A stretch of DNA of 60,543 nucleotides, the filler included, from Dirinaria sp. TL-2023a (lineage: Eukaryota), in assembly GCA_051941275.1 (NCBI GenBank). It is 10 parts of 10 records of this genome, joined end to end, with 100 filler letters (N's around TTAATTAATTAA, not from the genome) between each part and the next. Parts side by side here need not be neighbours in the genome. Positions count along the whole stretch, not along the records: positions 42,541 to 48,477 come from JAVEBF010001557.1; 9 more parts are not named here. One strand, written 5' to 3'. How positions within the stretch are numbered: the stretch's first letter is position 1; each line of letters opens with the position of its first letter. The notes under the pieces were generated by a model, which did not search any database, was not told the DNA's origin, and saw only the letters and a list, made by a program, of their open reading frames with translations. Made by a program: the position numbers and the translations under genes. Of the stretch, positions 1,716-52,863 are shown in pieces.

Positions 1716-3755
1716 ATGTTCCTGAGAAGCAACCTGGTGGCGGCGGCCCTCTGCTGCTGGCTCGGCGTTCCATCCTTGGCCGCCGTATTGGAGAAACTGC
1801 CTGCCCTCCCCCACGGCTGGACTCGCGTAGGGGCTCCTTCAAGCAAAAGCACGATTACCCTACAAATTGGCCTACAGGAGCAGAACCTCAACAAACTCGA
1901 GTCGCTCATCTACGCGGTATCCACGCCTGGGCACCCGTCGTACGGCAACCACATGGAAGGGGAGCAAGTTGCAGCTCTGCTCAAGCCGTCAGCTGATACA
2001 GAAAGCGAAGTCTTGGCTTGGCTCAAGCAAGCTGGTATTACTAAAGTTGATAGTGATGGGCATTGGGTTACATTTGCCGCCAATGTGGGGACTGCGAACG
2101 AGCTGCTCAAGACCGAATTCGCGTATTACGAAAACGCTGGGGTAACGAAGCTGCGTACTACCGAATACTCGGTCCCGGATAGTCTTGTCAAGCACATCGA
2201 TCTTATCTCACCAACCACATACTTCGGAAAGACTAGAGCCCAGGCTCCCACTAGACAAGGAGAATCGTCTCAATTGTCTCCCCGCCAGGCCGGCCAAGGA
2301 TGTGCTTCAACCATCACTCCAGACTGCTTGAAGCAAATATACGACATCAAGTACACACCAACTGGCAAGACCAATAGCACAATCGGATTTGGCAGCTTCC
2401 TGAACCAGTCCGCGCGCACACAGGATCTTCAACTCTTCGAAAAAAAGTATAACATTCCCGTGCAAAGCTTCTCAGTCGAGCTCATAAATGGCGCGACGAA
2501 TGACCAAAGCGTCAGTAACAATCATGGAGAAGCCAACCTCGATGTGCAGTACATTGCCGGTATCAGCCACCCTCTACCGATTGTTAGCTACATTACTGGA
2601 GGCTCTCCGTAAACACTCACAATGCCCCCTTTGCTGATTTGAGAACGCTGATTGAGGACAGTCCATTTGTGCCCAACCTTGATGAGCCAACCACCGCCGA
2701 TAATCAGAACGAGCCATACCTCGAGTACTACCAGCATCTTCTTGCCCTCCCGAACAGCAAGCTGCCTCAAGTTATCTCGAATTCATATGGCGATGATGAG
2801 CAGGTAAATAAGCCTTTGTAAGTGTATGTAGTACCTGCTAATAGAAACGTTCAGACTGTGCCACAAGCATATGCGACTCGGGTGTGCAACATGATTGGCC
2901 AATTGGGACTTCGGGGCGTCTCTGTACTAGAGTCTTCTGGGGATACAGGTGCGCACCGATGCACGCCGCCAGCACTTGCCACCATGATTTGCTAATAGTC
3001 CGCCGTAGGTGTTGGCGCTGCCTGCCAATCCAACGATGGAAAGAAAACTCCGCAGTTCACGCCTCAATTTCCGGGGACTTGTCCCTACATCACTGCTGTT
3101 GGCGGTACCCAATCGATCAGCCCCGAAGTGGCATGGGATGCTGGCTCTGGCGGATTCAGCAACTATTTCAGCCAGCCATCGTATCAGCAGTCTGCTGTTT
3201 CCAACTACCTCAAGAACGAGATCAGTCCCTCGGCACTTTCATACTACAAGACCTTCTTCAACAGCAGTGGCCGCGGCTTCCCTGACGTCTCCGCGCACAG
3301 TCTCAGCCCGGAGTAAGTGCATCGCATCGAATCTCGCTGCGGCTATAATAAAAGAGAGAGAGAGAGAGAGAGAGAGAGCGCAATGTTGACTAGTTTCCAG
3401 CTACTCGATCTATGATAACAATGCTGCCACCCTCACCGGCGGCACCTCGGCCGCCTGCCCTGTCTTCTCCTCCATCATCGCCCTCCTCAACGACGCCCGT
3501 ATCGCCAAAGGCCTCAAGCCCCTTGGATTCCTCAACCCGTGGCTGTACAGCGTCGGTGTCAAAGGTCTAACGGACATCACGCGCGGCGGCTCGGCAGGGT
3601 GTACGGGTGTGAATGCGCAGACCGGCCTCCCGGTCCAGGGAGGAAGCGTCATTCCTTACGCGAGTTGGAATGCCACCGTAGGCTGGGATCCCGTCACAGG
3701 ACTGGGGGTGCCGAATTTCGCGCGCTTGTTGAGCTTGGCAACGAATTCCCGGTGA
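1716..3755 (+). CDS. Secreted tripeptidyl-peptidase / sedolisin (S53), ~595 aa, 5 exons (1716-2608, 2662-2803, 2855-2948, 3009-3312, 3401-3755)
   Basis: Signal peptide [22 protein letters not shown]; activation prodomain (LPHGW...[13 protein letters not shown]); catalytic EANLD, ISNSYG, oxyanion [15 protein letters not shown], nucleophile GGTSA, Ca-binding GWDPVTGLG; four GT-AG introns keep the frame. Confidence 0.95.
3353..3378. repeat. (AG)n microsatellite in intron 4 of the S53 gene
   Basis: About 13 AG units seen directly. Confidence 0.9.
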
Positions 3756-5595
3756 GAGAAAATTTGAAGGCGGTTGGTGAATTCGGCGTATAGGTGAGAC
3801 GATGGTGTCGGAACGTGATGATCAGTACTTATGGGTTCTTTACCTCTAATATTGGAGTGACGGTATAGCCACCACCTCATTAATTCGAACATTATATCCT
3901 TAAGCTTCTCCTAGTCTATATATACCTAAAACGAACTAACATCAATACATCGTCCAAAAAGTCGAGTTTACGATGGCTTATATCTTTTTCTCGAGGCCTT
4001 CATTACATAAAAAAATCCCCCAACCTCAACTCAGATATCCTGCCCCAACTCCCCGGTCGTGAGCGATTCGATGGTAACTCCGTTAATTGCGGTGAGGGTC
4101 GTGCGCAACGAGATGAGAAATATTTCGAGGAATCTGTTCGGTTGATTTACTCTGCGGCCGCATCATCCTCTCCATTATCTACTTGCATCTATGCACTCCG
4201 TCCGACCTCTTGCTGCATCAGGGTCGAAGGGGTTTTATTTCCTGACCGAGGGCGACATTTAAGCAAAGGAGAGAGAGCGAAAAAAGCAAAAAAGCCAAAA
4301 AAAAAGAAAAAAAAAAAAGAATTTCGATTTCAAAAAGCAACGTGTTGTTGGAAAATCATCGCTCCATGCACCCACCTTACATACTTTAGTACTGGGTCAG
4401 GTCAGAAGTGGTCAGATACCAGATATTTGTGGTCTGTTGTTATTAGGGGGGCAAAGTTGTTCCAGTTAGTTATATAGGGGGTTCAAGGAGGCAGGCAGGC
4501 AGGCCCCCTGGAAAACCCATCATGGCGTTCATTGAATTTTAATATGTATACTGCATTACCAGGATAGCGGCCAGAGTCGGATAGGTAGGTAGACCGTGGA
4601 AATATTCGAGATATTATGGGGGGGGAAAAGGAAGATGGCTTGGCAATGCTACTACCTACCTCGTGGTAGATATGGAGATGTTGAGAAGATTACGGATAAG
4701 ATAAACATGAGAAGATCTTCTTAGATAGAAGCTTGATGTTTCAGTGAGGATTACCATTATTACGCGAGTAGATGTGGATTTGGCGTGATCGAACCTAGAT
4801 CAGTGTGGAGGGTGACATGCCAGCCTCCCAAGCAGAGGTAGATGAGTTGGTGAGGTGTGTGCGAGTAGGTGGCGCTGGTGATTTGTGTGATCATCTCAGT
4901 CGTAGTTGATGTCCTGCCTTTAAAACGATGTGTCCTTACCGTATCATATCATATCACATGAGCTAAGGCAAGGTAGCTAAGCGAGCCAAGGTACCCGAGA
5001 TCCCTCCCCCACAAAAAGCACAAATGTACCTGCACACACAATACATACACTATACTTCTTTCATCATCCCATTATCCCCTAAACGTTCTCGACCTCCCCC
5101 CAAACCCGCCCCATCGATCCCAAAACAAACCCCGATACCCAAAAAGCAATCCATCCATCGATCCCATCCAAATCATTCCCAACCAATGAACACCACGCCA
5201 TGTCCCCTTTTGGTAGGGCCGAATCTACCTTAGTATATCACCTCATCAGCCCATCAGGGCCGAAGACAATGATGACGTCTCCCCTTCGCCGGAGATTAGA
5301 ATCACCTCATAAAAAGAAACGAAAGCGAGTTACGCCTCCTGTACTGTAGCTCGAACAGAGCGAAAGCAAAATGGACAGAAAAAGGAAAACCTTCCGCGAA
5401 CTATGAGGCTAAGGGGGGCCATCCCCCATTTCTAAAAGATTAAAAACCCTCTTCTTCTCCCTCCTCTTCTTTCTTACTTTCTCTCCCGAAAATTTTTTGG
5501 CTCTCTCCCATTTTTCTATACAGTTTTCTCAATCTCTTCGTACGGGTACCAAGTGAACAAACAAAAAATCAAACCCACCTTAAAAAAAAGAAAAA

Positions 5596-5989: not shown

Positions 5990-6089
5990 NNNNNNNNNNN
6001 NNNNNNNNNNNNNNNNNNNNNNNNNNNNNNNNNTTAATTAATTAANNNNNNNNNNNNNNNNNNNNNNNNNNNNNNNNNNNNNNNNNNNN
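5990..6089. other. Artificial contig linker
   Basis: N44-TTAATTAATTAA-N44, with stops in all six frames. Confidence 0.99.
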
Positions 6090-12077: not shown

Positions 12078-12177
12078 NNNNNNNNNNNNNNNNNNNNNNN
12101 NNNNNNNNNNNNNNNNNNNNNTTAATTAATTAANNNNNNNNNNNNNNNNNNNNNNNNNNNNNNNNNNNNNNNNNNNN
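12078..12177. other. Artificial contig linker
   Basis: N44-TTAATTAATTAA-N44. Confidence 0.99.
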
Positions 12178-18161: not shown

Positions 18162-18261
18162 NNNNNNNNNNNNNNNNNNNNNNNNNNNNNNNNNNNNNNN
18201 NNNNNTTAATTAATTAANNNNNNNNNNNNNNNNNNNNNNNNNNNNNNNNNNNNNNNNNNNN
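18162..18261. other. Artificial contig linker
   Basis: N44-TTAATTAATTAA-N44. Confidence 0.99.
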
Positions 18262-18765: not shown

Positions 18766-19052
18766 GGTCAGCGGAAACAGCAAGGATATTTTGCTGTATT
18801 TTGGAGAGATAGGGGTTGTGAAGAACTAGTTGTGGTCGTGTGGTTGAAAAGTGAAGCGTGTAAATGTTTAGCTGTAGCTGCAGTACTACTACTTTACGTT
18901 GCTGTATTGAAAGTCCGGTGGTTCGTGCACCCGTAGGGCTGAATCTCCGATGCCGATGGGACACCGTCGAGACCGTCGAGACCGTCATACTGCACTGGCT
19001 CACAGGCTCTTGACTTTCGGGAAACTGCAACCTCTCGAGTCTGTGCAGCAAA

Positions 19053-21143
19053 ATGTTGGACAGTTTCGAGATCCTGTCCACTTCGGGCGTTGTGCTGTGG
19101 TCAAAGTCTTACGTCCCCGTCAGCAACAGTATCATCAATGGTTTCATCAAGGATGTGTTCATCGAAGAGAAGGTGCTCCCAGGCGCCAATGTTGCCGACG
19201 ATACCTCGGCGGTCAAGAATCCACCGTATAAGAAGGAAAAGTATACACTGAAATGGACGAGCGTGAAGGATCTCGGTCTCATTTTCGTTGTTAGTATGCA
19301 TCAGCTCAGCAGTGCAATGTTCGATGCTAAATTGTGCGCGAGGCGGTCTATCAATCACTATTACACCTTTCATGGATCGACAGACTTTTAGACAATATCA
19401 AGATTATGTTCGTCGACCTTTACGGAGATCAGGTGAAGAAGCCGCTTTCTAGCAGGGTCGAATGCGACTTCGACGGATATTTCGAGCAGCAGGTGCGCGA
19501 GTTGGAGGGTTCGGCAGAGAAAACCCCACAACGGCCACCACTACCAGCTTTCGATGAGCTTACACCACTTTCAAGCTCGGACAGCCGATATAAAGAACCC
19601 CCGCCGCCCATACCAGGTTTCTTGACAGGTAAAGAGAAGCCTGCGAATGGCAATGCGCCGTTTTCAGACTCTACACCCGTGTCTACTCCAGATACCTCCA
19701 GGCCGACCACCCCCTCAAACAATCATCTCCTGTCTACCAAACCCGCATCTAAACATCTGTCAAGACGCGCCAAAAAAGCAGCGACGGCATCAAATGCTTC
19801 GTCTGGAGATGAAGCGTCACGAAAAAGGCCAAAGTCAAGCAAAGGCGAGGGCAAGAAAAAGCGGGTCTGGGGTGCAGAAGGTATCGCAGACGAAGATACA
19901 GGGGAACAGCTTGACTACTCGGTCTCGACAGGGAACGACGGTATTGAAAACTCATCATCGAACTTGGCAACCACAGCTCCCATTGACGCAAGCGTGCATG
20001 GTACCAGGACCGGCAAAGGCCAATACGTTCTCAAAGACTTGGATGATGAGGTTCATTCGATACTGGACGGAGCAAATGAGAAGAAGGGTGATTCTGGCTC
20101 GGCAGGCGGCGTGGTAGGATCGAGTCTCAGCGCTATCAGCGGGCTATTTAGGAATGTAGTTGGCGGGAAAGTGCTTACTAGAGCGGACTTGGAGAAGCCG
20201 ATGAAGGGCATGGAAGAGCATCTTCTGAAGAAGAACGTCGCGCGAGAAGCTGCTGTCCGGCTATGCGAGGGCGTAGAACGAGAACTTATCGGAGTTAAGA
20301 CAGGTAACTTCGAGAGTAAGTTAATGCAACATCGTTCTTTTCTTGAAACTCGACACTAATTGTTGCTCAGGTATCGACAGCAAGATTCGCGCTTCTCTCG
20401 CTTCTTCTCTTCGTAAAATCCTCACGCCGACCACCTCCCTTGATATACTGCGCTCGATAAACTCAGTGATCTCGCCTCCATCAACGCCACTTTCGCCGTC
20501 TCCACGTCCTTATGTCATCTCCATTGTCGGCGTTAATGGCGTTGGCAAATCTACCAACCTAAGCAAACTCGCCTTCTTTCTGCTCCAAAACCGCTTCAAT
20601 CTCCTAATCGCTGCATGCGACACATTCCGCTCTGGCGCCGTCGAGCAACTTCGAGTGCACGCCAGGAACCTCAAGGAACTAAGTGAGCGTGAGGATCTGG
20701 GGAAAGTGGAGCTGTATGAGAAAGGCTATGGCAAAGATGCTGCCAACATCGCAAAGGACGCAGTATCCTATGCCGCATCTCAACATTTCGATGTCGTTCT
20801 TATCGATACGGCAGGCCGGAGACACAATGACGCTCGTCTTATGTCCTCTCTCGAAAAATTTGCGCAATTTGCCAAGCCAGATAAAATACTAATGGTGGGT
20901 GAAGCGTTGGTGGGCACAGACTCGGTCGCGCAAGCCAGGAGTTTCAATGAGGCGTTTGGGAAGGGAAGGGGTCTTGATGGGTTTATTATCAGTAAATGTG
21001 ATACCGTTGGGGATATGGTTGGCACTTTGGTCAGTATGGTACATGCAACTGGCATTCCGGTGGTTTTTTTGGGTGTGGGCCAGCACTATGGGGATTTGAG
21101 AACGCTGAATGTCGAGAGGACTGTTGGTCTGTTAATGCAATAG
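19053..21143 (+). CDS. SRP101: Signal recognition particle receptor alpha subunit, 3 exons (19053-19289, 19343-20315, 20371-21143)
   Basis: Longin-type N-terminus MLDSFEILSTSGVVLW; SRP GTPase motifs GVNGVGKSTN, CDTFRSGAVEQL, DTAGR, SKCD, GVGQHYGDL. Confidence 0.96.
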
Positions 21144-37818: not shown

Positions 37819-38781
37819 TCTGCCAAGCCAGAAGCCAGAGGCAGAAAAACTGCGGGGGACGCCTCCGCTTCGGCTTCGAAATTTGGCTGTTCAACTCGCT
37901 CTAGCTTCCGTCTTTTGCGCATACAATTTGAACCTTCTTGTCGAAAACTTCATCAGCAACTCCCTGCATTTAACACGGACTAACAAGGATTATGATTAAT
38001 TGAATGAGTATTTATAGCAGGCTCTTGCGCAGCAAACCCGCCGGCATTGCTGAGTAGCTGGTATATCAAAAGATCTGTTAATAATCCATTCGGCAGATGG
38101 AAGATATTTCTCCGTCTTTCCACTAGCAATTCTCCAAGCATGCAAGAAGGTGGCAATCCTCGCGGCGTGCTGTCAAATCATGAAACTCCCGTGTTCCGGT
38201 CACCAGGGGGCGGCTGGGGATCCCACACTACACCCGAAATAGTGAGCTACGCCGCAGAGGAGATTTGCTTTTCGAAGTCCAAGTACGAGCACCTTGATCT
38301 CAAAGTCCTGTAGTATTTTGGCAAAGCAGCTGTGATAGTCGCATACTCCTTGCAAATAAAGGTTGGTTTAGGTACTCAACGTAAGTCAAAATATCGGTTC
38401 GGAGTTGGCGAGAAGGCATGGAGTTATAGTATTTACTTTTTGCACCTGTCGCTCGCGAGGCTGAACGTCGATCATTAGGTATCCTGAAACATGCACAGCT
38501 CAATAGCTTAACCACCCCGCCAAAGATTTGTCGTTCCATATTTCGACATTTCTCAGCAAAGCAGAAGCTTCACAAGGATAAAAATAACTAAAATCATAGA
38601 CTGCGCCGACTCTCTTCACTCGCCAAACGCAGCGCAAAATAAATTATTGTCTGAAGTAAGAGAGTTTTGACTGTAATGCTATCCTTCTCTCCGTGCATGA
38701 AAAGAAACACACTCGTGCAAGCAGCTTTCAAGATCAGGAACTCCTGGCTGGGAAGATTGATGCTTTGTCCTTTTGCTCACG

Positions 38782-41700
38782 ATGAAGACTCCTTACTACA
38801 GCGGCAGCTTCACGGCAGCCCAACACTCAAACGTCGATGATGACGACGAGCTTAGGGAAAGAATGTTAGAGCACCGGCTTGCCAACCGAGACGACGTGCG
38901 TGACATCCATATCGTTACCGCCTTACCCAAATTCAGAGAAAGTGGAACAAACATGGCCAAGAAGGCTTCTGACAAGACCGATCTGTCGTGGGCGATGCAC
39001 TGGGCGCTTCAAGTAGGCGATCAGTTCTTCGAGCTCCAACGGGGCTACCCCGACCCCTTGCGTACAGGACTGAAAGTCTCCAAGTGGGATAAGCATCAGC
39101 AGAGCCATATAATCGAACGTCATCGCCAAGGAGTTACTGCAATGACTGACGATGAGATCAAAGACGTTGGTGAGAAATACTTCTCCCGCTTGGAAAGGAT
39201 AGATATCAATATATACGATGTATGGTGCAACAATTGCCAGATAGCTGTCGATCGTATACTCCGCGATATCGGAGGTCTCTCCTACTACAGGATGGCGCTT
39301 CGGTCAGTGCAGGATATGGTGAAGCAATTTTTCTACAACGCTATTCTGAGTATTACGCAAATGTACGGCCGCTACAGGGGATGGAACGAAGAATTGATTG
39401 CCAAATATACAAAAGTTTTGCACAAAACACTCCGCGTAATGACATCGCGTTCGCACTATCCTAAAAGACATTGGATTAGAGAAGACATCGATGCGGCTGA
39501 CGGTGTCATTAAGAAAGTCAGTACTGTTACTGATCATTGGATACTGACGGTTTTGGAATCGTCCCTCTCGCTTCGGAAGGGCTCTGAGGATCTCTACGTT
39601 CGCCGTGGAAGCGATGGCAAAACCGAGTTGAACTTTGATGGCCTAAAAAGGGCAACCAAAGGCATATTCGATGACGGCGACAATTCGGGATTAGCTTGGC
39701 TCAAGGCAATGCCATGGCTAACAGCAGGCTTCTTGGTAGGAACACCAAGATGGGCTGCCGCTGTCATTTCCATTGCCATTTCACGCGCTTCGCAAATATA
39801 TGACGAACGTACGCATGCAGGGCTGAAGGGCGGTTTGGAAGAGTCTTTGACAGGACTAGGGGTCTCACCCGAGATATCAAATGAATTATCAGCCTCAAAA
39901 ACTAGACCAAAACTGCGCAATCAAAGGCGGTCCACCAATGGACAGAGGAGGATCAGGTCTAAGACCCTCCCTATCGACAGTAAGCTTGTCGCTCGATACG
40001 AACGATGCCTCAGTACTACGGGAGTGCCGTATTTCATTGATCATGTTGACGAAAGCCGGTCATGGGATGCGCCAGATCAGCAGGAGATGTGCTTGAAGAT
40101 AACAGATCCTCCTCTGTCAAAGAAGTGGGAAGAGAAACAAGAAGAAGGCCGAACACTGTATGTCAACCGGATCACAGGAGAAGTGACTGATACCAGACCT
40201 GGGCTGGCGGAAATCTGGGCAGTTAAAAAGAAGGTCAAACCTGACTGGGTAAAGTCGACCATGATGGCTCTGCCCCATGGGTGGGAAATGCGCCGCACAG
40301 AAGACGGCGAAATGTTCTACCTTAACCATAACGAGGATGCTCCGACATCGACAACGACTCACCCAATGAGGCTAGAAATTGAAGGCGAAAGACGGAGTCT
40401 CCTCCCCGAATTCAACGTTGAATGGGATCACGACCGAGGTAAGAAGTACCGTAAAATTTCGACTGGAGAAGTCCGTTGGAAAGCAGTTGATGGACCTCTA
40501 TACACTCAAGCCAATGACAAGACAAGGATCAGTCTCCAAAACCCTCAGGAAGGCTTCGTGGAGCCCTTGCCTCCTGGCTGGACAGTTATGGTTCAAGAGA
40601 ATGGGCTGAAGATCTATTGGAACGGTAAGGTTGGCAAAGACAAGATAGAGAGGACGACGCATCCTTTGACGGACAAGAGACGAAGATTACAGCGGGAATG
40701 GGAGATGCGTTACACGCCTGGGAGCAGGAGATACTGGGTTCATCACGGAGGCGATGGGCGAGGTACGACCTGGTGGACTAGACATCGGCTTCTGAAGAAC
40801 ACGTCCTTGAAGAACAACGCTAGCGGTTGGAAATTGTCCAAGAACGGTCAGGATTGGGAGTGGTTCGAAGGCGGTGATGTTCCACATTCGGAGATCCCAG
40901 TGCTTGATTTAGATGATCCGACGGATTATGAGTTTCGAGAGTATCCCTTCCTTCTTCCGCCGCGGATTGTTACTGAAGACGGAGCATTCATCGAACCGTT
41001 GCCTCCAAATTGGGTGAGGCGAACACATGAGGATGGAAGTGTGTACTACTGGAATTTCAAAGACGAAGTCAGCACGGAATCACACCCCAATGACGAGGAA
41101 AGAAGGAATCTGCCCGCGCTATGGGAGATGCGTTTCACGCGCCACGGTAGGCAATACTTCGTCGATCATGACGATGGATCTTCCTGGTGGACCCATCCCC
41201 GCGAAGACAAGAAAGAGCAGAAACTACGCGCACGACCCGGCCAGGCTCAAGACGGCTGGAAAATTGCAGAAGACAGCAAAAGCTGGGAGAGGTTCGAAGA
41301 ACAACCGGACGCTCAATCCACCGAACAAAATGTGGATGCTCTATCGCACACTTATTCTACTGAGAGCGAGGCAGTACAGGATGGGGAGACTACGGAGACA
41401 ACACGCTCGCGCTCTAACCCTCGGGAATGGCTCAAAAGCATCAATTCGGGTGACATGTCCAACGCTCGGGAGTGGCTCAAAAGCGTCCATTCCGGCGACA
41501 TCTCCAATCCTCGCGACTGGCTCAAGAGCGTCAATTCCAGCGAAATCATCGCCGGTGCCAAGACCCGTTATTCGAGCAGTCCCATATTCCTCAAGAAATT
41601 CGCAAAATCGCCCAGTGCCAATTCCAGTGCCAGTCCCAGTTCCACTCTGACGGGAAGCCCGCAAACACTTGCTGGAGAAGGCGGGGATGGAGATCTAGCA

Positions 41701-42108
41701 GAGAAGAAATGGTTCGGCGAGACACCCGAGATGACCGAGGAGCCTGATCAGGCCACAACACCTTTTCAGATAGACGATACCGAGAAAAACCTAGCGTCTA
41801 TCAGTCCAGAGACTAGCTCGCAGGAGAACCCAGAAAAGGAGATCGGTTCGCTCACAGAGAGACCCGTGAGTAACACGGATGTCCGGAGGGAAGAAGAATC
41901 GAGCACATCTCAACCGCAATCGTCCCCGAATCCAACCAACGCCCCGGAAAAAGACTCCATGAGAACCTGGGCCAAGAGAACCACCTCCGGCCTTCGCGCG
42001 CTGAGAAAGCACACGAGTAAGAACGGGAGCAAGCTTTCCTTGGACCATAGTGGTCCTGAAGCTGCAGTTGAAGGGCTTGGGATCACGACTACGGGATCTG
42101 CGGAGTAG
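38782..42108 (+). CDS. Multi-WW-domain protein with putative N-terminal permuted papain-like (PPPDE/LRAT-type) domain, ~1108 aa, intronless
   Basis: HWALQVGDQFFEL ... YDVWCNNCQ; hydrophobic segment at ~39694-39790; WW-like units such as LPHGWEMRRTEDGEMFYLNH, PLPPNWVRRTHEDGSVYYWN, LPALWEMRFTRHGRQYFVDHDDGSSWWTHP. Confidence 0.85.
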   Translation: MKTPYYSGSFTAAQHSNVDDDDELRERMLEHRLANRDDVRDIHIVTALPKFRESGTNMAKKASDKTDLSWAMHWALQVGDQFFELQRGYPDPLRTGLKVSKWDKHQQSHIIERHRQGVTAMTDDEIKDVGEKYFSRLERIDINIYDVWCNNCQIAVDRILRDIGGLSYYRMALRSVQDMVKQFFYNAILSITQMYGRYRGWNEELIAKYTKVLHKTLRVMTSRSHYPKRHWIREDIDAADGVIKKVSTVTDHWILTVLESSLSLRKGSEDLYVRRGSDGKTELNFDGLKRATKGIFDDGDNSGLAWLKAMPWLTAGFLVGTPRWAAAVISIAISRASQIYDERTHAGLKGGLEESLTGLGVSPEISNELSASKTRPKLRNQRRSTNGQRRIRSKTLPIDSKLVARYERCLSTTGVPYFIDHVDESRSWDAPDQQEMCLKITDPPLSKKWEEKQEEGRTLYVNRITGEVTDTRPGLAEIWAVKKKVKPDWVKSTMMALPHGWEMRRTEDGEMFYLNHNEDAPTSTTTHPMRLEIEGERRSLLPEFNVEWDHDRGKKYRKISTGEVRWKAVDGPLYTQANDKTRISLQNPQEGFVEPLPPGWTVMVQENGLKIYWNGKVGKDKIERTTHPLTDKRRRLQREWEMRYTPGSRRYWVHHGGDGRGTTWWTRHRLLKNTSLKNNASGWKLSKNGQDWEWFEGGDVPHSEIPVLDLDDPTDYEFREYPFLLPPRIVTEDGAFIEPLPPNWVRRTHEDGSVYYWNFKDEVSTESHPNDEERRNLPALWEMRFTRHGRQYFVDHDDGSSWWTHPREDKKEQKLRARPGQAQDGWKIAEDSKSWERFEEQPDAQSTEQNVDALSHTYSTESEAVQDGETTETTRSRSNPREWLKSINSGDMSNAREWLKSVHSGDISNPRDWLKSVNSSEIIAGAKTRYSSSPIFLKKFAKSPSANSSASPSSTLTGSPQTLAGEGGDGDLAEKKWFGETPEMTEEPDQATTPFQIDDTEKNLASISPETSSQENPEKEIGSLTERPVSNTDVRREEESSTSQPQSSPNPTNAPEKDSMRTWAKRTTSGLRALRKHTSKNGSKLSLDHSGPEAAVEGLGITTTGSAE
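41416..41550 (+). repeat. Three 45-bp (15-aa) coding tandem repeats
   Basis: NPREWLKSINSGDMS / NAREWLKSVHSGDIS / NPRDWLKSVNSSEII. Confidence 0.92.
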
Positions 42109-42440: not shown

Positions 42441-42540
42441 NNNNNNNNNNNNNNNNNNNNNNNNNNNNNNNNNNNNNNNNNNNNTTAATTAATTAANNNN
42501 NNNNNNNNNNNNNNNNNNNNNNNNNNNNNNNNNNNNNNNN
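42441..42540. other. Artificial contig linker
   Basis: N44-TTAATTAATTAA-N44. Confidence 0.99.
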
Positions 42541-43344
42541 CTTTTTGTATTCATCTTTTTTCTTACATTTTATCATTATCTATTGCATGCTCAATAAAAG
42601 AGGGGGAGGGGAGATCTATTTTGATTTTGATTTTTGGTGCGTGGTGGCTGCTCACGCCTATCTTGAATGGGTTTAATTAAGGCTGTATATATTACTTTAC
42701 ATCACCATCCTCCGAATATAATTCTACCCTATTACCACCTTGGCTTTAGAAGGAGAAAAAATGGGTGGAAGGGTCGTTTAAATGAAACAGAAAAAAACAA
42801 AAGAAAACAAAAGCACCGATAGACAGAATTCGATCCCCCATCTAACCAGCCAATTTCAATAAATATTCCATAAACAACCAGGGATGGAACACGATTTCCG
42901 CTACGTCACTGCAACTGATGCAAGATATACAAATTCGCGATCGCGATAGAAATTACGGATCATCATCGTCAGATTCATTGAACTTGACTATTTCTCTACG
43001 AGTAAGGTAAGAGGTCATATTATGAGATTGATGAATTCCAAAGCCGCCACTCAATTGGTAACAATTTTTTTCCTTGAAAACTCAGTGCTAAGGAAGGCGC
43101 GCACAAGGTAAGGTTCTATGACGGACACGGCTGTGATGAGACTTGACAAGTACCTAGGTACCTTGATGGAAAGAGCTGGGATTGTGGAAATACCCTAAAG
43201 ATCGCGTAGCGGTAGTTTTGGACAGGGTTCGCTTTTTTGGCTAATTCGGTCGTGTGATCTGTATCATTTCTTGCTTTTTTAAGTGTCTTTGCTTTGTAAT
43301 TCGTTCAATTTCGGGTAATGAATGTGCGATCCAAGTGTCCTACT

Positions 43345-44918
43345 TTAACTTCCTACAGGTCTCGTACCACCTTCAATAATGCCTGCATCTCCCAGATTCC
43401 CCACGAAGACGACCAGGACTGCGCAGTAACTATTTTCACTTCAATTAGCGGCATGGATTTAATTATACTTTCTATCACAAAAAATTCTTTATAGATTTCC
43501 GCGAAGAATGATAGAAAAAAGATGTGTGGACTCACCCGGCACTAGCGGCCAAAATCTCATGCCGCCTCGCTTTCGTAAAGAGCGACAGCACCGCGCTGAA
43601 CGCAAGCGTTGCAACGAGAAGTACGCCCATGCACACGATGTTGGATCGGTTGGTATCAAGGGTGACGGAGAGATGGTACAGCAGCCAGATCGGGATGACG
43701 AGGAGAAGCAGGATGATGCAGGTGATGATTATCGTGACGAACACGTTGATCCGCCCGCGCGTGAAATAGCGGTTTGCCGGGTCGGTGGATTTGGAGGCTG
43801 TTTCCTGAAGTGTGGAAATTAGGTCAGAAAAGGATATTGACCATTGTCAAATCGTTTCAAGAAGAGGTAGAGGGTAGAAGAGTCAGGGGAAAATCTCTAC
43901 CTCCGAACAAAATATCATCTGCGTGATGTGTCAATGTCGCTGAAGAGAGAGGAATATCTAGGACGGAAATTACCTGAAAGAGACGGCAATGAAACGTCCT
44001 GAGCATTCGTTCGACAAAAGCGTCAACGAAAGAGTGGTCTCTGCCCGGACGCAAGCTCACTAGATCTTCCTTGTGATATGCGAACGCCGCTTCGGATTCT
44101 ACGAGACACTGCCGGCCTTCGATGTAGTTACGTAGGCTCAATTGATCTCGCACGGGAGGCTTGTTCATTGCGACGAGGTTTTGGGCTTGTTGCAGCAATT
44201 GACCTACGAGCTCATGTTGTAAGTAATCAGGCTCGCACATAAAGTTACTTTCCAGAGTCAAAAAACGAAATTTACCGTATTTCAGGGTCTTTTCTTCAAT
44301 CCGGTCAAGAAGAGCGACACGATCCCGCCCCGGAAGTTCTCTGTTTTCCTCATCAAGGTCTCTAGACCGTAAGCACGCGCGGCGATCAGGATCGGCACTT
44401 TTGGCATCTTTCTTGTCCATGTCACTCAGAGTGTCCTCAAGCTCGCGAAGCTCATCTTGCCGATGCATGAGCAGTCGCGCATGGATGTATCCGAAGCGCC
44501 GGTATATCATGAAAGATTCATCGCTATCGGCATAGGCCGCTTGCCTAGGATAGCCTTTAGGATGATCCTCCACTATAGGAAAAGAATTAGCTCCTTACTT
44601 AAATATGTAGAGGGTTTGTGGCCTAGCCCCTCACATTTTCTAATGAACGTTTTGGGACCAGGCTTTGGTTTCTTCGTTGGTGCTAGTCTCTTATGCCAAA
44701 AACAGTTCCTCGAGTATCGACCTACATAATCAGGTCAGATCGAGGCTTTTCATGATGATCTTGTGCTTTGTCTCACTAATGGTCCGTGACTTTTTGGACG
44801 CAATTGTCGACCCATACCATGTTGTATGATTAGGCTGCTGCGATTTTGCCTGGGGCAAATCGGCCGAAGACTTCTCGCTGGTGTCATCATGACAGGTTTT
44901 CGGTATATGTCCGTCCAT
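43345..44918 (-). CDS. DUF6594-type membrane protein, ~375 aa, 7 exons (44918-44777, 44721-44635, 44572-44276, 44203-43974, 43918-43901, 43804-43536, 43429-43345)
   Basis: Family hallmarks GYP..AA..DSD..F.IYRRFG.IHAR.L...QDEL..LE..L..MD, DLVSL, C-terminal TM helices, and EILAASAG|YCAVLVVFV; exons sum to 1128 nt in frame; first two exons less certain. Confidence 0.88.
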
Positions 44919-45259
44919 CGCGTCAACATAATCACCTGATGCCGTCGAAAAGATTCAACAAAGACCAGCTTGGAAATTTCAGTAACCGCAATTGACTCCT
45001 GATATAAGATATCTCGTCAGTACTTCAATAACATGAGCTCTTCTATTGCATCTGCCAATAATTTGACGCGCTCCCTCAGCCTTTCGCAGAACCGATCGAT
45101 AGGTGTAGTAGGAGTCGCACAATAGCTCGAGGCTCTTTACCCCGCTTCAAGGCATAACGAGATTCCATAGTCGAAAGGGAGCCTAGCATGCTGCGAAAAT
45201 GCAGGGCTAGAATGACGGAATGCATTGTAGAGATAAGCAGTCTATGGATCCAATTGCCG

Positions 45260-45677
45260 TCAAGCTCTCCTAGTGTCTGTTTCCTTTACCAACTTTTCAT
45301 ACCTGAGCCCGCTCTTATCCTTGAGCCAGTAATCCCACCCACCACGGTCTTGGTCTAACTCCCAACCATCGACGAACATGATATAGTCAAATGTTTGTGA
45401 GGCCGACTTCCTCATCCAAACCTTGCGGCCCTTTTTCCATTTGCGTTCCGGCTAGTTTGGTACTCAGTGTCTCTCGAGAGCTGTTGACCTTGGAAAATTT
45501 ACCGGGTCTCTATTCAATGGATCTGTAGCAACCGTGTGAGCTCTAGTCGCAGGGACTTGCTCCTCCTTAGAAAAGCAGGATCATTAGTGTCCAATCTAAT
45601 CAAGGCATGAGTGACAATACCGTTCTCTCGTCTGTGTTCTCCGAAAAGCCTTCTTGTGCGCCTTGTGAGATATCCAT
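45260..45677 (-). CDS. Small 103-aa protein with a C-terminal SH3/Tudor-like beta-barrel candidate, 3 exons (45677-45621, 45565-45503, 45451-45260)
   Basis: MDISQGAQEGFSENTDERT|EEQVPATRAHTVATDPLNRDP|PERKWKKGRKVWMRKSASQTFDYIMFVDGWELDQDRGGWDYWLKDKSGLRYEKLVKETDTRRA*; two phase-0 introns of 55 and 51 nt (GTATTG..CTAAT..AAG; GTAAAT..CTGAG..TAG); not in the ORF track. Confidence 0.72.
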
Positions 45678-46289
45678 TTGTGATAAATGCCTTATGAGCA
45701 CGACTTAGAACATTCACGAATAAGGTGCTGAGCTTCGTCAGGGTCATGCGGGGCTTTCTTAAGCTAGCGGAACTTGAGGCTCAAAATCGGGACTGCTTTC
45801 CCACCCAACTGAACGCTGTAGAAGATCAACATTGACCCCACCCTTTGTGGAACATATAATGTGTGGGGGTGCAGACCATCCATGATAACCGTCATGCAAG
45901 ACACGCTGAATACAGACTGCGCTCAATGCAAGTATCCATTTCTGGCGAGGTGGGGTACTGGAGCTTGGTGGGCAGATGGATATCCTTAACTGATGTGTGG
46001 TCACTCATGTTCCAAAGTTTATCATCAGCTCGCACACGTAGAATCAATCTCGAATGTACAAGATGCTTTCATGAACTGTGCCAACCACACTGGACGAAAC
46101 GATTGCTTTTCACCGAGCATAGCTTCGTACGCCAAACAAACAGCAAAGCTATCATTACATGGCGCATGCTCAGCTTCCGATTAGAACATGACGTTGAGTG
46201 ATCAATCTGAAATAGGTTGCTGCGCTGGAATTCGAAAATCAAAGCATGCCCCTAATGACTCAATTAAGGCAATGCTCAATGCGCACGCA

Positions 46290-47779
46290 CTATGCATGTG
46301 TCTTCCTCCTCTTCTGGGCGGAAGGCTGAGAGGTCGAACTAGGGGTTGGAGACGGGGACAAGAGATCTGCGCCCTGCAGTGGTGCGGCAACGCCAGGTAG
46401 CACTATCTGGTCGCGCGTGTGCTTCATCCTCAAGGATCTTCTGCGGTCGCCGGCTTGCTTGAAGGCCTTGACTGCGTCCAGCTTTATTGCATTAGCTCCC
46501 GAAGATGGCTGAACGCCTTCCCAGGATGTAAGTCCTCCCCAGGCTATCCTGCTGACTGGCATCCCGCTTTTCCACACGAAGCGATTCAAAGACCATCCAA
46601 AGTCTTTGATTAGGTCCATGGTGGGTACTTCTTTGAAGATAAAGTTCAGGTTTAAAAGTCCTTGCGGCCCGGAGACATGGGAGTCGACAAACGTTGAGTC
46701 GCCTTGGTCGCTACTTTCGAGCAGCGGCGCTAGAATAATCCGCTCAAGGGAGCGAGAGCAACGATCTAATTGAACCGGGACTTGTTCCTTTGGGAACCCA
46801 GGGGCTTCTCTAATTTTGCATGTGAGTTCAGAAACGAGGAACTTGGACTGTTTCTCTACGAGAGCCTCTAGCGCCCATATCAAAGCCGTTGTGAAAGACC
46901 CCTGACCAGGTGATAAAGTAGTATTCCCAGAGGAACAAGCACCAAGAAACTCGAAAGATCTAAAAATATAAGCTCATTATGTTGCGAAATAAAATGGCAC
47001 GGGCATAGTTACCTGTATGACCAAGCCTGACGTGTGCTCCCAAGGTCTCCCGCGTAACAGCTAGACTCACATCTTAGACCACCATAGACAAATTTCTGCA
47101 GCATGGAATGCTTACCAGTCGAATACTTCGAGCACGTCAGCTTTGGTGTCCTGAAAATTATCCTCAATGCGACCCCAGACGATTTCGTTCACTTCCCCTG
47201 GGTTTTCTGAGAGCTTCCGTTTGCTGCATCCTGTTAATCGGAATACGGTTGAAGTAGAGAGAGCGCCAACCCAGAGAGAGTAAGGCCGTGGCGGCCATTT
47301 CCGGACGACTTTGGACTACCATGACCAGCGTAGTACACCAGGAGGAGCGTCTGATATGCATCCTCCGCGTACAAAAAATCCGATGTGTATTTCATGAGTT
47401 GGATATGAGGGAGATGGTCAGAGTTGCTATCAAGATATACGCGAATGACTTTGTAATGGAAGGTTTTCTCAAGAACACGCGCGAGTTTAGAGACCTGGTA
47501 AATCAGCTACGGTTTTCTCGGAAGGTGAGGAGGGCGTACTTCTTCGTCCGTATGCAAATCGTCGCATGCCTTATCCCACGATACCAGGAGGCAGCTGACC
47601 TTTTTGTAGAAAGAGGGTGTTTTGTAGTGGCCGCTGTTATCCATTACAGTGTTCCAGGCAATCTGAAACCTGGCATTTTCTTTCTCGAATGGATCTTCGT
47701 ATTGCACTGAGGAAGCAACTTCCGCATGCCTTTCATTTGGTTGGGCATGCGGAGTCGCATTAGCAGAGAACGGCGCCAT
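46290..47779 (-). CDS. Caspase-like (clan CD / C14-like) cysteine protease, ~429 aa, 5 exons (47779-47540, 47494-47271, 47223-47116, 47060-47013, 46959-46290)
   Basis: Strand-1 motif VSCLLVSW..DDL...E|VSKLARV...FHY; His motif LLLVYYAGHG; Cys motif ADVLEVFDC|CYAG; FEFLGAC; GSFTTALIWAL; exons sum to 1290 nt in frame. Confidence 0.85.
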
Positions 47780-48477
47780 GAATCCACGCCTGCTTGCAAA
47801 AACAGTGGTAAGAAGCGTAAGAAGTTAGGCTGACGATATCACCTTTTCACTCGATTAACAAAAAAAAAAAGAGATGAAGAACAGATGTGTTTCGATGAAA
47901 ACGAGCAAGCTGACTATTTAGCTTTAGGCCGAATCAGCAGCTCTGCAAGTATTGTTCATTAAGCCGCTCGTTCTGCCTTGAGCTCATGAATCAAACTTCT
48001 GTCGAACTATAAATAACAGACACCTAGTTTACCGACGTTCTAATGGGAAGGCTGTACCAAGGCGCTTTTGAGCCCCACTATGTAGACAGTCGCTGCCTCC
48101 TATCCGTGTGGAGCCCATAACCCTTCATGAGACACTGCCTCATCGTCTTGTTGGGCTGAGCATACAGTACAAGCCCACAGCGATGGGTGCTGTAGGAATT
48201 GGTAAGCATTGCGTCTGTAGGTACACATCAAGCTGCTCCGCCGCACACTTTCCCAATCTTTCTCCGATAATACTTCCCGATTCCGCATTGCTATAACAAT
48301 CCTGCATCTGGAAGTATCCGATGAGCAGCGCCAGGAAAAGAGTGCTTAGATGTTGGTCATATGTCACAACAGCCTTTTAATACAACGTCTATTTCTACTT
48401 TACGATGTAAGATTGACTGTCAAGGCCTCAATCGTAGATCTTGTCTCAGCGAGGTCTGGAGCAGAATGTGACGCTGC

Positions 48478-48577
48478 NNNNNNNNNNNNNNNNNNNNNNN
48501 NNNNNNNNNNNNNNNNNNNNNTTAATTAATTAANNNNNNNNNNNNNNNNNNNNNNNNNNNNNNNNNNNNNNNNNNNN
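48478..48577. other. Artificial contig linker
   Basis: N44-TTAATTAATTAA-N44. Confidence 0.99.
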
Positions 48578-48871: not shown

Positions 48872-50378
48872 CTACGCCGACGCCGGCCCCTGACTCTGAT
48901 GCGCATGATACGGCGGCTTGGCGGCCTTGGCTTTCTCCTCGTCGAACCTCCACACCCCACCTGTTTTCTCGGCCTCGACGCTCTGCCCGATAGGCCTTGC
49001 CAGAGCTTCAAAGATTTGATCCCCCGGTGCCCCTCCCACGGGGCTGAGGCCGGCGTTGTTGTTAGGGCCTGGGGTTTGTTGCTGCTGCTGCTGCGGCTGC
49101 GTTTGCAAGCGGGTGAAGAAGGCGCGTTCCCATTCCCTGCCCTCGGCCGCTTCCTTCTTGCGCAGCTCGCGCTGGGCGTTTTCGATTTTCGATTTCTCGA
49201 CCGAGGTCGTGTCCATGTCCCCCTTGGCGATGGCCTGGGCGACGGCGTTCCAGGCGCGTTTGGCTTCGTAAGGGGATTGCTGGTCGAGCGGGGCGACGAT
49301 GAGGGGCGTGGTCGGGTTTTGCTTGTGGACGAAGGTGTCGACGGTGCTGGAATGCGAGAGTTTCTTGCCGGCGCTGGCGCCTTCTTTGATCACGAATGAG
49401 TCGGTCCACTGCCCTTCCACACTGTACAGGACGTCTTTCTCTTTCCCGGCCGGGTACAGCACCGCGGTGAAGGAGTTCTTTTTCCCGCTCAGCCAGCCTT
49501 TGCCGCTGTAGTCGATTCTCGATACGAAGCCCGACGACGAGGAGATGTAGGTGCAGTTGTTCAGCTCGACAAACGGTTTGCCGTAGATCAGGCCTTCGAT
49601 GTGCAGGGCGGGCAGCGTGATGAGGTAGGTTTCTGGGGTGGAGGAGCCGGGGAGCGAGAGGGTGAGGAGGGCGTGGCCGACTTGTTTGATGTGGATGGTG
49701 CGCGAGAAAGAGGCTTTCTGGGCGTTGTAGCCTTCCAGCTGTTCAAAGCATCAACGCCTGAGATTCCGGATTAAGAAGAAGTAGGTGGAAGAGCCGTACC
49801 TTGACGCCGTGCTTGTCGTTCCAGATGCAGTACGCAGTTACAGGCGGATGATGACTACATCAGTCTCCTGATTCAGCTTCCCAAGCATCCTCATTCTCCC
49901 ACGAAAATTTCGGGATTGACCCACCTGACCTGCTCACTGACCAGCCTCGTCTCCCCACTTCCATCCTCCCACCTCCCCAGGTACAGCTCTCCGAGGAAGG
50001 GGTTCAGCGGCTTCTTCTCCGTGCCGTACTTGTCGCTCCTGCTGCTGTACTGCTGCTTCAACGTGCTCAAGAACCATTTCAGCACCAGCAACGCGCGTTT
50101 GGCGGGGTCGGGCTCTTTGACGGGGGCGACGAAGATGGAAGGGTGCTCGGTCCAGTAGGCGGAGAATTCGGTGAGAGAGGTGGTGCCGAGGATGAAAGGG
50201 GGTGCGGTCATGGACGAGAGGTCGCCATTGAACGAGGCTATTGACTGTCGCGATGTGAGGATTGGTATCCAGGTGCAGAAGACTGGGCATGTGAGTAGCA
50301 AACCTTGAGGAAAGAGGACCAGGAGCCCTTGTTCTGTGGGGAGACGCCGGCGCCTTCGTCTTTGGTAGAGAGAGACAT
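48872..50378 (-). CDS. KES1: Oxysterol-binding protein Kes1/Osh4, 4 exons (50378-50304, 50244-49925, 49854-49800, 49738-48872)
   Basis: [41 protein letters not shown] signature [21 protein letters not shown]. Confidence 0.96.
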
Positions 50379-50683
50379 CTTGGAGGGGTTAAATCAGGGG
50401 GGGGAGGAATGGGCAAGAGGACGAGGGAAGGTGGAAGGTGGAAGGTGGAAGGGTGTCTGTCAGAGGTTCAAGATCCGGGAACAGGAGTAGCTCTAGTAGT
50501 GTGTTAGTATTAGTGGAAGTGGTGGTGGTAGTGGTAGTGGAGGGGCAAATATTAATGCGGATAAGGTAGCAGACTGGAGACTTGGCAGGGCGAGGCGAGA
50601 TCAGGCCACGGCCACAGCCACATTCATCATCATCATCATCAGCACTTCAGCAGTCCACACACATGGTCGGAATCGTCAGCGAG

Positions 50684-51053: not shown

Positions 51054-52863
51054 TTACGTCTTGACATCAGGTTCCGTTCGGTCAACAAACTCCTTCAGCT
51101 TCAGCAGCTCAACGGCCAGATCGATGTTGTCCTTGAGATAATCTTGTGCGTCGAGCTTCCACTGCGACACTTCGGCCTCGTGTTTCTCTACATACAACCG
51201 AATCGTAGCACCGCTGCTGCCGGTCCCGGAAAGCCGCACGACAATCCGGCTGCCGTCGTCGAACTTGACGAAGATGCCTTGGTTCTTGCTGACGCTGCCG
51301 TCCAGATCCGTGTAGGAGAAGTCGTCGGCTTCGATCACTTTCCGGCCCCGGATGGTCGATCCGACAAACTCCGACTTCTTCGTCGTGATGAGTTCCGTGA
51401 GGTTGGCGACCACCTTGTTGGCGCCCGCGCTGTCCACGTTCTCGTAGTCGTAGCGGGTGAAGAACGTTCGGCCGTAGATGGCCCAGAAATCTTCCTGGAT
51501 CGTCGCGATGCTCGGTGTCACCTCGGGCTGCTGCTGGGCGACACCGGCGATGATGTTCAGCCAAGCCATGACCGCCCAGAGGCCATCCTTTTCCCGGATA
51601 TGGTTGCTGCCGGTGCCAAAGCTCTCTTCACCGCAAATTGACATCTTCTCCGTGTCGAACAGATTGCAGAAGAATTTCCACCCGGTGGGCACCTCGTAAC
51701 TCTGGAGACCCTGGTGTTTGGCGACGAGGTCGACTGCGCCGGACGTGGGCATGCTTCGAGCGAGTCCGTACACGCCTTGCTTCTTGAAGTAGGGGATCAG
51801 CGTGGCATAATGTGCGATGATGGCCAGGCTGTCGCCAGGTGACACAAAGGTTTTGGCGCCGTAGATCATGTTTCGGTCTCCATCGCCATCGCTAGCGGCC
51901 CCGAACTGGATCCCGTTCTTGTCGACCGCATCAACGAGCGAGTGCGCGTACACTAGGTTCGGGTCAGGGTGGCCACCTCCGAAATCCGGCGACGGCACGC
52001 AGTTCTGGGTACTGCTGCTGGGTAGCCCTAGCTCTTTCTCGAAGATCGCAACACCGTAGGGCCCGGTGACACCGTGCAGGCCATCGAACAATGTCTTGAA
52101 GTCCTTGTGGCTTTCGAGAAAAGACTTGATCAGGGGGAAGTCAAAGATATCCTTCAACATTTCCACATAGTCAGCTGTCGAATCAATAATTTCCACTTCC
52201 AGAGGTCCGTAGGTCTGCGTGCCGATGCTCGTAAGGTCAATGTCGGGTATGTCGGCGATGTTGTAGGAGGTGAGTGATTTCGAGGCCTCGAAAATTTTGT
52301 TGGTCACGGTCTCTGGTGCTGGCGCTCCGTTTGCAAGATTGTATTTGATGCCGAAATCATTCTTTGGTCCTGCGTTTGAAATTAGTAAATCCGCTTGAAA
52401 TTCAGGGACAGGATAGTTCATACCGCCAGGATTGTGGCTGGCTGTAAGAAGTATGCCACCCGTGGCTTTCCGCTTTCGAATGACGTGACTGGCGGCTGGG
52501 GTGCTGAGGATTCCATTCTGCCCGATGAGTAGCTTCTTCACTCCGTATGCCGCGCCAATTTTGGCGATCAATTGCATGACCTCCGGGTTGTAGAATCGTC
52601 CATCTCCACCAATGACGAGGAAACTACCTTCTGCGCCCTCGGGGATGGAAAGGAGGATGCTGGTGACGAAGGATTCGCTGTAATTTGGTTGCTGGAAGAC
52701 GGTGACCTTCTTGCGTAGACCCGAACTGCGCTATTGTGAGCATGCACAGGGCGCTGAAATCGTCTGCAAGGAAAGGCAATCACGACGCAGCGATTGAGGG
52801 AGTCACTTACGTTCCAGGCTTTTGGTCCGTAAAGGGTTTGAGGGAAACGGTTTGTACACTCAT
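51054..52863 (-). CDS. PGM2: Phosphoglucomutase, 3 exons (52863-52811, 52725-52424, 52369-51054)
   Basis: DQKPGT|SGLRKK, GGDGR, phosphoserine loop TASHNPGG, metal loop DGDGDR, sugar loop GEESFG, RLSGTGSSGATIRLY. Confidence 0.97.

Follow-up and report, generated by a model that had tools for sequence, protein, structure and literature searches.

Analysis of a 60,543-nt stretch of DNA from Dirinaria sp. TL-2023a (GCA_051941275.1), here called the window, showed three minus-strand genes between positions 43345 and 47779, which encode a caspase-like protease, a small Tudor-like protein and a membrane protein of the Pfam family DUF6594 (PF20237). The locus represents a conserved module of three genes that recurs in filamentous ascomycetes. 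The three genes were found to be linked, expressed, moving as a block and co-diversifying, and we conclude with high confidence that they form a functional unit. An initial annotation of the window had placed three same-strand genes here, separated by about 610 and 340 bp; the gaps were 612 bp between the protease gene and the small gene, and 341 bp between the small gene and the DUF6594 gene. The window is composed of 10 joined parts, of which those side by side are not necessarily genome neighbours, and the trio lies in the part at positions 42,541-48,477 (JAVEBF010001557.1).

Linkage and co-diversification of the trio

Contigs from Joint Genome Institute (JGI) metagenomes were scanned for relatives of the protease. 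From 330 pattern matches, 129 were confirmed and the best 80, with 28-59% identity, were kept and grouped into 48 clusters at ≥90% nucleotide identity. Six-frame open reading frames (ORFs) of these loci were searched with purpose-built hidden Markov models (HMMs), that for DUF6594 being built from 49 of 120 listed matches. Where at least 4 kb was present on both sides of the protease, a DUF6594 gene was found in 18 of 19 clusters, at a distance of 0.68-2.6 kb. Over all clusters, DUF6594 occurred near the protease in 28 of 48 (0.66-2.6 kb away); the other 20, locus L050 excepted, had less than 4 kb on at least one side, and most had less than 2 kb. The 19 full loci held 18 DUF6594 genes in the 114 kb lying within 3 kb of the protease, versus one in the 188.6 kb beyond 4 kb. 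DUF6594 density near the protease was thus approximately 30-fold above that further out (Poisson, 1e-20). A comparable neighbourhood was seen in Xylographa bjoerkii, where the protease relative MMC18_005090 and the DUF6594 protein MMC18_005092 both come from entries that give a longest contig of 135,008 bp.

The small gene was followed through the same loci with a profile that was started from five close homologues and rebuilt over three rounds. The first profile gave strong matches in the nearest loci only; elsewhere the matches were weak, and always at the same place. With the iterated profile, matches at E ≤ 1e-3 were obtained in 25 of the 26 non-redundant loci that had sequence available beside DUF6594, and the remaining locus (L068) gave a match at the expected place with E 0.0012. 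Loci L005, L018 and L059 end before this place, and L057, which nearly duplicates L035, showed no small ORF. The E-values were obtained with an iterated profile in a small six-frame database, and the real support comes from the positional regularity and the alignment. Irrespective of where the protease was located, the small ORF lay 279-1168 bp upstream of the DUF6594 profile match, on its strand, in 23 loci; in two loci (L078, L079) it lay upstream of the protease instead. The stop codon followed the domain by 0-8 codons in 25 of 25 loci. This indicates that the domain is the C-terminus of a separate small protein, and not a DUF6594 exon. The place given to the small protein in the initial proposal is thus no accident of the window locus, its presence being near-universal.

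Four arrangements of the two larger genes were observed among 26 pairs. DUF6594 was located downstream of the protease on the same strand, as in the window, in 8 pairs, upstream on the same strand in 7, upstream and divergent in 8, and downstream and convergent in 3. Among the flanking ORFs, no family recurred between non-redundant loci other than HET-domain ORFs and those common to close relatives. The flanks comprised 158 ORFs of ≥170 aa, and Pfam searches with 80 of these identified DNA polymerase epsilon, PEX6, a tRNA synthetase, a kinesin, TAF6, RPN6, a polyketide synthase (PKS) and others, together with one NB-ARC and one ankyrin ORF. Because the flanking genes differ between loci, the trio appears to travel as a unit through different neighbourhoods. 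The unshared flanks and the four arrangements therefore indicate that the linkage is not ordinary synteny.

The three proteins also diversified together. Trees were compared for 26 pairs, comprising 25 loci and the window, with near-copies and the loci with end-cut DUF6594 (L005, L034, L079) left out. The protease and DUF6594 trees had 12 of 23 bipartitions in common, whereas 2000 label shuffles gave 0.27 on average and never more than 3, and 11 of the 13 protease branches with support of at least 80 recurred in the DUF6594 tree. Patristic distances were strongly correlated (Mantel r = 0.89; permutation maximum 0.33). For the small domain, p-distances over 22 loci correlated with those of the two partners (r = 0.73 and 0.74; permutation maxima 0.36 and 0.31). 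Arrangement classes clustered on both trees. Contigs sharing an assembly prefix contained as many as three different trios (e.g. L008, L022, L078), which fits duplication of the whole unit. The initial annotation had made its proposal depend on linkage in other genomes and on agreement between the gene trees, and both were borne out.

Gene models, transcripts and predicted proteins

Gene models were read from the sequence and then corrected using database homologues and RNA contigs (Table 1). All 12 introns of the three models have GT..AG ends and no internal stops occur. The three genes of the initial annotation stood, although their models had missed the middle exon of the small gene, the second N-terminal exon of DUF6594 and its 18-nt micro-exon. 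Several candidate models were rejected. An end of protease intron 2 at 47230 was frame-compatible but gave a non-AG end and was dropped; a two-exon small gene and a DUF6594 start directly at exon 3 were dropped after comparison with homologues and RNA joints. Profile and fold analyses were performed on proxies, either exon ORFs or the close homologues P0002, P0121 and P0127.

Table 1. Features of the trio locus, in window coordinates
Feature	Positions	Strand	Details
Protease gene, caspase-like (clan CD, C14-type)	46290..47779	-	5 exons: 47779-47540, 47494-47271, 47223-47116, 47060-47013, 46959-46290; 429 aa
YYAGHG His codon, putative catalytic His	47321..47323	-	Read from sequence
FDCCYAG, two Cys codons	47057..47117	-	First codon split by intron 3 (47117-47116 + 47060); second 47059-47057, putative catalytic Cys
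Small gene	45260..45677	-	3 exons: 45677-45621, 45565-45503, 45451-45260; 103 aa
Tudor/PWWP/chromo-like beta-barrel domain	45263..45433	-	Directly abuts stop codon
Optional intron joining small-gene exons to DUF6594 transcript	44969..45302	-	Boundaries inferred from sequence reading
DUF6594 gene, exons 1-4 of 7	43345..44918	-	44918-44777, 44721-44635, 44572-44276, 44203-43974
DUF6594 gene, exons 5-7 of 7	43345..44918	-	43918-43901 (18-nt micro-exon), 43804-43536, 43429-43345; 375 aa
Loop motif E-D-L-V-S-L-R-P-G-R, candidate cleavage/recognition site (inferred)	44040..44069	-	Between cytosolic helical hairpin and membrane part
Region coding three C-terminal long hydrophobic helices of DUF6594	43345..43770	-	AlphaFold2 helices of P0002; hydrophobic sequence

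Transcripts were examined in four runs of one lichen metatranscriptome sample that contains a relative of the stretch (~90-99% identity per contig); the RNA contigs give neither abundance nor transcript ends. All three genes were covered. RNA joints confirmed all six DUF6594 introns, including those around the micro-exon, both introns of the small gene (45446>45503 and 45564>45620) and protease introns 2, 3 and 4. Contigs also passed unspliced through the stop codon of the window protease. Two further joints, 47522>47608 and 47549>47610, have plus-strand GT..AG ends and fall inside the first exon and intron of the protease, opposite to that gene. These could reflect an antisense transcript or misalignment of the diverged relative.

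The small gene and the DUF6594 gene have the same orientation and are, at least in part, transcribed together as a unit. A contig from run X3 (1811 nt, depth 27.9) contained every DUF6594 joint and both small-gene joints at the same depth, and an extra joint, 44960>45313, with 16 bridging letters. Reading of the sequence at this joint suggests an optional intron with its donor (CAG/GT, the GT at 45302-45301) inside the small ORF and its acceptor AG at 44970-44969, 50 nt before the DUF6594 start codon. With these boundaries, splicing would take out the intergenic spacer together with the final 13 codons of the small ORF. The joined frame in the window sequence stops shortly before the DUF6594 start, so the product would be a two-ORF transcript and not a fusion protein. 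Other RNA contigs read past the small-ORF stop to ~45155; thus, transcripts exist both with and without this optional splice.

The window protease was 67% identical to the full-length database protein P0121, and has a caspase-like domain followed by a conserved C-terminal domain of ~150 aa. The spliced product retains both catalytic motifs named in the initial annotation, YYAGHG and FDCCYAG, with His before Cys as in clan CD; the second motif appears only once intron 3 is removed. An alignment of 47 family members was made from the six profile sequences and 41 of 150 listed matches. Within D-C-C, the Asp and the first Cys were invariant; the second Cys and the His of the other motif were at least 90% conserved. 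The YYAGHG motif was present in 24 of 26 partner loci. Against the Pfam Peptidase_C14 family (PF00656, cut-off 21.4 bits), exon 2 of the window gene alone scored 15 bits and P0121 18.1 bits, and the cut-off was passed by the relatives P0126 (37.7 bits), P0122 (23.8), P0132 (28.3), P0148 (27.6) and P0230 (30.1).

A protease profile built from six full-length relatives was searched against a library clustered at 50% identity. It matched 3694 representative proteins at E ≤ 1e-3, 1791 at E ≤ 1e-10 and 513 at E ≤ 1e-30, and the matches covered both the caspase-like domain and the ~150-residue C-terminal domain. The same profile gave no match among PDB sequences at E up to 1, which indicates that this clade has diverged strongly. 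In 4 close and 15 further relatives, weak C14 and Raptor_N matches were the only ones, with neither repeat nor NOD domains, and no fusion to DUF6594 occurred among 15 long or top relatives. A hydrophobic 19-mer resembling a tail anchor was present at the C-terminus of 12 of the 47 proteases (P0122, P0123, P0125, P0126 and 8 others), and absent from the window protease and from P0121, its closest relative. This suggests, at the level of sequence, that membrane attachment of the protease may be clade-specific. Two entries in this family deserve mention. P0123, a clear family member, is named 'Phosphatidylinositol-4-phosphate 5-kinase' by its source, probably a mis-annotation, and P0259 carries a caspase-like domain and a HET domain in one protein, which could be a real fusion or a merged gene model.

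DUF6594 was identified by Pfam (cut-off 30 bits) on two window exon ORFs, with 112.3 and 68 bits, and P0002, which is 94% identical to the window model, scored 226.5 bits across the whole profile. The best database matches of the window ORF were labelled as lichen-forming Lecanoromycetes; P0001, labelled as a metagenome-assembled genome (MAG) of a lichen mycobiont, was 100% identical but truncated at the N-terminus. P0002 was modelled using AlphaFold2 (AF2) with 42 sequences, giving a mean predicted local distance difference test (pLDDT) score of 70.8 and a predicted template modelling (pTM) score of 0.45. The model has a disordered tail (residues 1-63), a long helical hairpin (95-134 and 161-189) and three long C-terminal helices (274-306, 309-334 and 339-368), in agreement with the disordered N-tail, helical soluble region and C-terminal membrane helices initially described. 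The tail, predicted to be disordered, is basic in sequence. Only helices and no strand were predicted, which does not correspond to a gasdermin fold. Foldseek gave no match for this model in the PDB at E up to 1e-3, and VIA-align returned only generic antiparallel coiled-coil hairpins (Z ≤ 10), below the level that is meaningful for helical models. Thus, no fold relation of DUF6594 to a pore former or other family can be stated.

The most conserved motif of the DUF6594 family, E-D-L-x-x-L-R-P-G-R, coincided with residues 220-231 of P0002, the only internal segment with pLDDT below 50. Its columns were invariant or at least 90% conserved in 42 DUF6594 proteins, and of 26 DUF6594 genes linked to a protease, 25 encoded the motif. 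Other parts that ranked among the best conserved were the three membrane helices with their connecting loop. Locus L002 has, further out than the DUF6594 gene of its trio, a second one (3591-4746) at 5.3 kb upstream of the protease. This is possibly a solo DUF6594 gene, as no homologue of the small ORF was detected next to it.

The small protein of 103 aa consists of a low-complexity N-terminal part and a C-terminal barrel. An AF2 model of the 63-residue ORF of its last exon, made with 31 sequences, had a pLDDT of 95.4 and a pTM of 0.79. Foldseek against the PDB placed the PWWP domain of NSD3 and the Tudor domains of LBR and 53BP1 at the top, with template modelling (TM) scores of 0.63-0.73, probability 1.00 and E ~1e-2. 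More than 40 of the top rows were PWWP, Tudor, chromo and KOW-type barrels (TM 0.6-0.73), with E-values of only ~1e-2. At the level of its predicted fold, the protein is thus a five-stranded SH3-like barrel of the Tudor/PWWP/chromo type, as the initial annotation had proposed. At the sequence level, no Pfam match was obtained for the window ORF or for P0127, and among 31 members no family was common to more than two at E up to 1. The database contained five close homologues, 51-89 aa long; P0127 was 66% identical to the small protein. Neither the small ORF nor P0129 was found in the ESM Atlas. The predicted fold resembles the Royal family barrels (Tudor, PWWP and chromo). Unlike these, the small protein has no sequence-level family match, and appears as a stand-alone cytosolic mini-protein beside a protease rather than as a chromatin reader.

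Possible function of the module

As the most likely mechanism, we tentatively favour a proteolytic switch in which the protease acts on DUF6594, a reading to which we give somewhat less than even weight. The protease would cut DUF6594 at its invariant flexible basic loop (L-R/K-P-G-R, then an acidic residue), and the cut would part the cytosolic hairpin from the membrane part. The freed membrane part may then permeabilise or remodel membranes, or act on them in some similar way. The Tudor-like protein, which is produced together with DUF6594, could guard or present the site, or regulate the protease. In metacaspases, an acidic residue two positions before the catalytic Cys binds basic P1 residues. 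The invariant Asp of D-C-C, two residues ahead of the putative catalytic Cys, would fit cleavage after the loop arginine, if the metacaspase pocket as generally understood applies here. A membrane-damaging outcome accounts for about half of the weight that we place on the switch.

Some observations weigh against the switch, or against reading too much into the linkage. Most HET-Q2-like proteases carry a sensor domain, and the present one does not. Membrane helices are already part of DUF6594, for which Foldseek and VIA-align matched no known pore former in the PDB. Selection of loci relied on two protease motifs, with the best 80 retained out of 129, so that the counts, including the 18 of 19, hold for that protease subfamily. 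One fully flanked locus, L050, has no DUF6594, and instead has two tandem proteases. Neighbourhoods were mostly housekeeping or metabolic, with HET or NB-ARC genes in few only. Finally, congruence of the trees is partly expected from common organismal descent.

Several other explanations were considered. DUF6594 could be a membrane tether, from which cleavage at the loop frees the N-terminal tail and hairpin as a non-lethal signal, the membrane part being an anchor only; this would be comparable to the regulated proteolysis known for membrane-bound regulators. The linkage and loop evidence would be the same as for the membrane-effector reading, and the basic, disordered tail, the housekeeping neighbourhoods, the absence of excess polymorphism and the expression of the module in a whole-sample lichen RNA library are all consistent with it. 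However, Pfam identified neither a DNA-binding domain nor a known signalling domain in the soluble part, fold searches gave generic coiled-coil hairpins, and conserved membrane helices with a conserved connecting loop would be unexpected for a passive anchor. We regard signal release as unlikely. A similarly small probability is given to a membrane-docked protease complex, in which DUF6594 is a receptor or regulator that positions the protease, the Tudor-like protein is an adaptor, and the substrates are others, for example in membrane or protein quality control. Stable physical partners would be expected to co-diversify as the three proteins do, a membrane tail is present on 12 of 47 proteases themselves, the conserved C-terminal domain could be a docking domain, and housekeeping neighbourhoods would be in keeping with such a role. 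Against this, the partner has a loop that is invariant, flexible and basic, as would be typical of a substrate site.

A role in allorecognition, with the trio as a polymorphic het-type locus of non-self recognition under balancing selection, had been offered as an option in the initial annotation. HET-domain ORFs were found within 10 kb at 3 of 25 non-redundant loci (L009, L050, L078), P0259 joins a caspase domain to HET, and several different trios occur in one assembly. HET genes are very common in these fungi, however, so their presence at three loci is weak evidence. Polymorphism was examined in 12 comparisons of near-identical contigs in four groups, a small sample. The trio was as conserved as its flanks or more so, the protease in the L039 group being 99.6% identical versus 98.0-98.4% for the flanks; the least favourable case was L019 versus L022 (protease 89.5%, right flank 91.6%). 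No excess polymorphism of the trio was thus seen in these comparisons, and the window locus lies among conserved housekeeping genes in the whole-window scan. Allorecognition seems improbable on these grounds. Still less credible, and close to refuted, is the explanation that the genes are neighbours by inherited gene order only, with no functional link. In its favour, the data are comparative throughout, and linkage as well as tree congruence are inflated by relatedness. Against this explanation stand the unshared flanks, the four arrangements, neighbours kept down to 28% protein identity, the 30-fold enrichment of DUF6594 near the protease, and a spliced RNA that joins two of the genes.

The proteolytic switch has precedents in other systems. 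Protease-effector gene pairs are known in fungi, as in het-Q1/het-Q2 of Podospora anserina (Clave et al. 2022, PMC8851545; review PMC12881547), and in fungal gasdermin clusters about a fifth of the proteases are described as caspase-like. Like these clusters, the trio has a protease gene conserved next to a candidate effector gene. Unlike them, its partner is all-helical with three membrane helices and not a gasdermin, and it has a constant third member, the Tudor-like protein. Its protease is C14-like, not S8 or CHAT as in HET-Q2-like proteins, and lacks TPR, WD40, ANK and NOD parts. The initial comparison with a gasdermin-type effector module therefore held for the linkage of protease and partner, but not for the all-helical, membrane-embedded partner or for a protease devoid of sensor repeats.

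A bacterial parallel is provided by EACC1-caspase, a two-gene protease-effector defence module (Kaur et al. 2020, PMC7159879), for which removal of an inhibitory part by the protease is reported to create a pore (Evans et al., preprint 10.1101/2025.11.14.688446). Both systems place a caspase-like protease beside a small non-enzymatic membrane-active partner that varies little as its context changes. EACC1 differs from DUF6594 in being bacterial, ~13 kDa in size and made of alpha and beta elements with one membrane helix, and no sequence or fold relation between the two was found. Bacterial proteases of this type are described as fused to sensors, and as having no Tudor-like third gene; the trio differs on both points. 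The trio may thus work like the gasdermin or EACC1 systems, by analogy, but is a member of neither.

The protease can also be compared with metacaspases and other Peptidase_C14 proteins, with which it has in common the His-then-Cys order and motifs of the G-H-G and D-x-C type. Unlike metacaspases, its family is very divergent, has an extra C-terminal domain and carries a hydrophobic tail in a quarter of members. It also has a fixed gene partnership, which canonical metacaspases are not known to have. Searches of the literature other than supplementary tables, judged by titles and the opening of abstracts, found no description of the trio, DUF6594 or PF20237; the initial annotation likewise knew of none.

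Regulated cell death and immunity in fungi are at present explained by a few executioner families (HeLo/HELL, gasdermins, HET and patatin), which were mostly found through gene clustering. The trio has the same genomic signature as known executioner clusters: its genes are tightly linked, move together and co-diversify, and an assembly contains several diverging copies. None of its three families has been characterised, namely the protease clade (513 representative clusters at E ≤ 1e-30), DUF6594 and an unannotated Tudor-like mini-protein. In its boldest form, which we think unlikely yet worth stating, the switch would make DUF6594 a new family of cell-death executioners that disrupt membranes under the control of a protease and are widespread among filamentous ascomycetes. 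Every copy would be tied to a metacaspase-like protease of its own and to a Tudor-like guard, which would be translated from the transcript that also encodes DUF6594. If true, this would be a third executioner system beside HeLo/HELL and gasdermin, and the conserved bicistronic arrangement of DUF6594 and guard would be one that is rare in fungi. In any case, a Pfam family without a function gains a testable hypothesis, cleavage at one invariant loop, an orphan caspase-like clade gains a partner, and a candidate conserved bicistronic transcript is provided in ascomycetes. Should the membrane-effector reading fail, the module would remain of note as a new unit of proteolytic signalling at membranes.

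Window context and other observations

The remainder of the window was examined by a Pfam scan of 92 ORFs of ≥110 aa. Matches were found to signal recognition particle (SRP) receptor alpha (19014-21140), an oxysterol-binding protein (48875-50388) and phosphoglucomutase (51057-52730), and further to an aldehyde dehydrogenase, a Pumilio protein, a short-chain dehydrogenase, an RNase T-type exonuclease and two secreted-type peptidases. The initial annotation had recognised no housekeeping gene on the contig; the window-wide scan finds several, although those with coordinates lie outside positions 42,541-48,477. Nine pairs of 44-base N runs (792 N), occurring every ~6.08 kb (5990-6089, 12078-12177, 18162-18261 and onwards), represent filler between the parts, and the pairs at 42441-42540 and 48478-48577 lie on either side of the trio.

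Some features of individual loci were also noted. At L050 (8047-11392 and 17328-21331), a TPR ORF and an 850-aa HET-domain ORF are located 6-7 kb downstream of the proteases, and a retroelement integrase-like ORF lies between them. Locus L067 has a HET-related ORF with no Pfam match, and L021 an NB-ARC ORF. In the window, an uninterrupted plus-strand ORF at 38761-42105 encodes 1115 aa; it had no Pfam match besides WW, and contains three WW domains and a long low-complexity tail.

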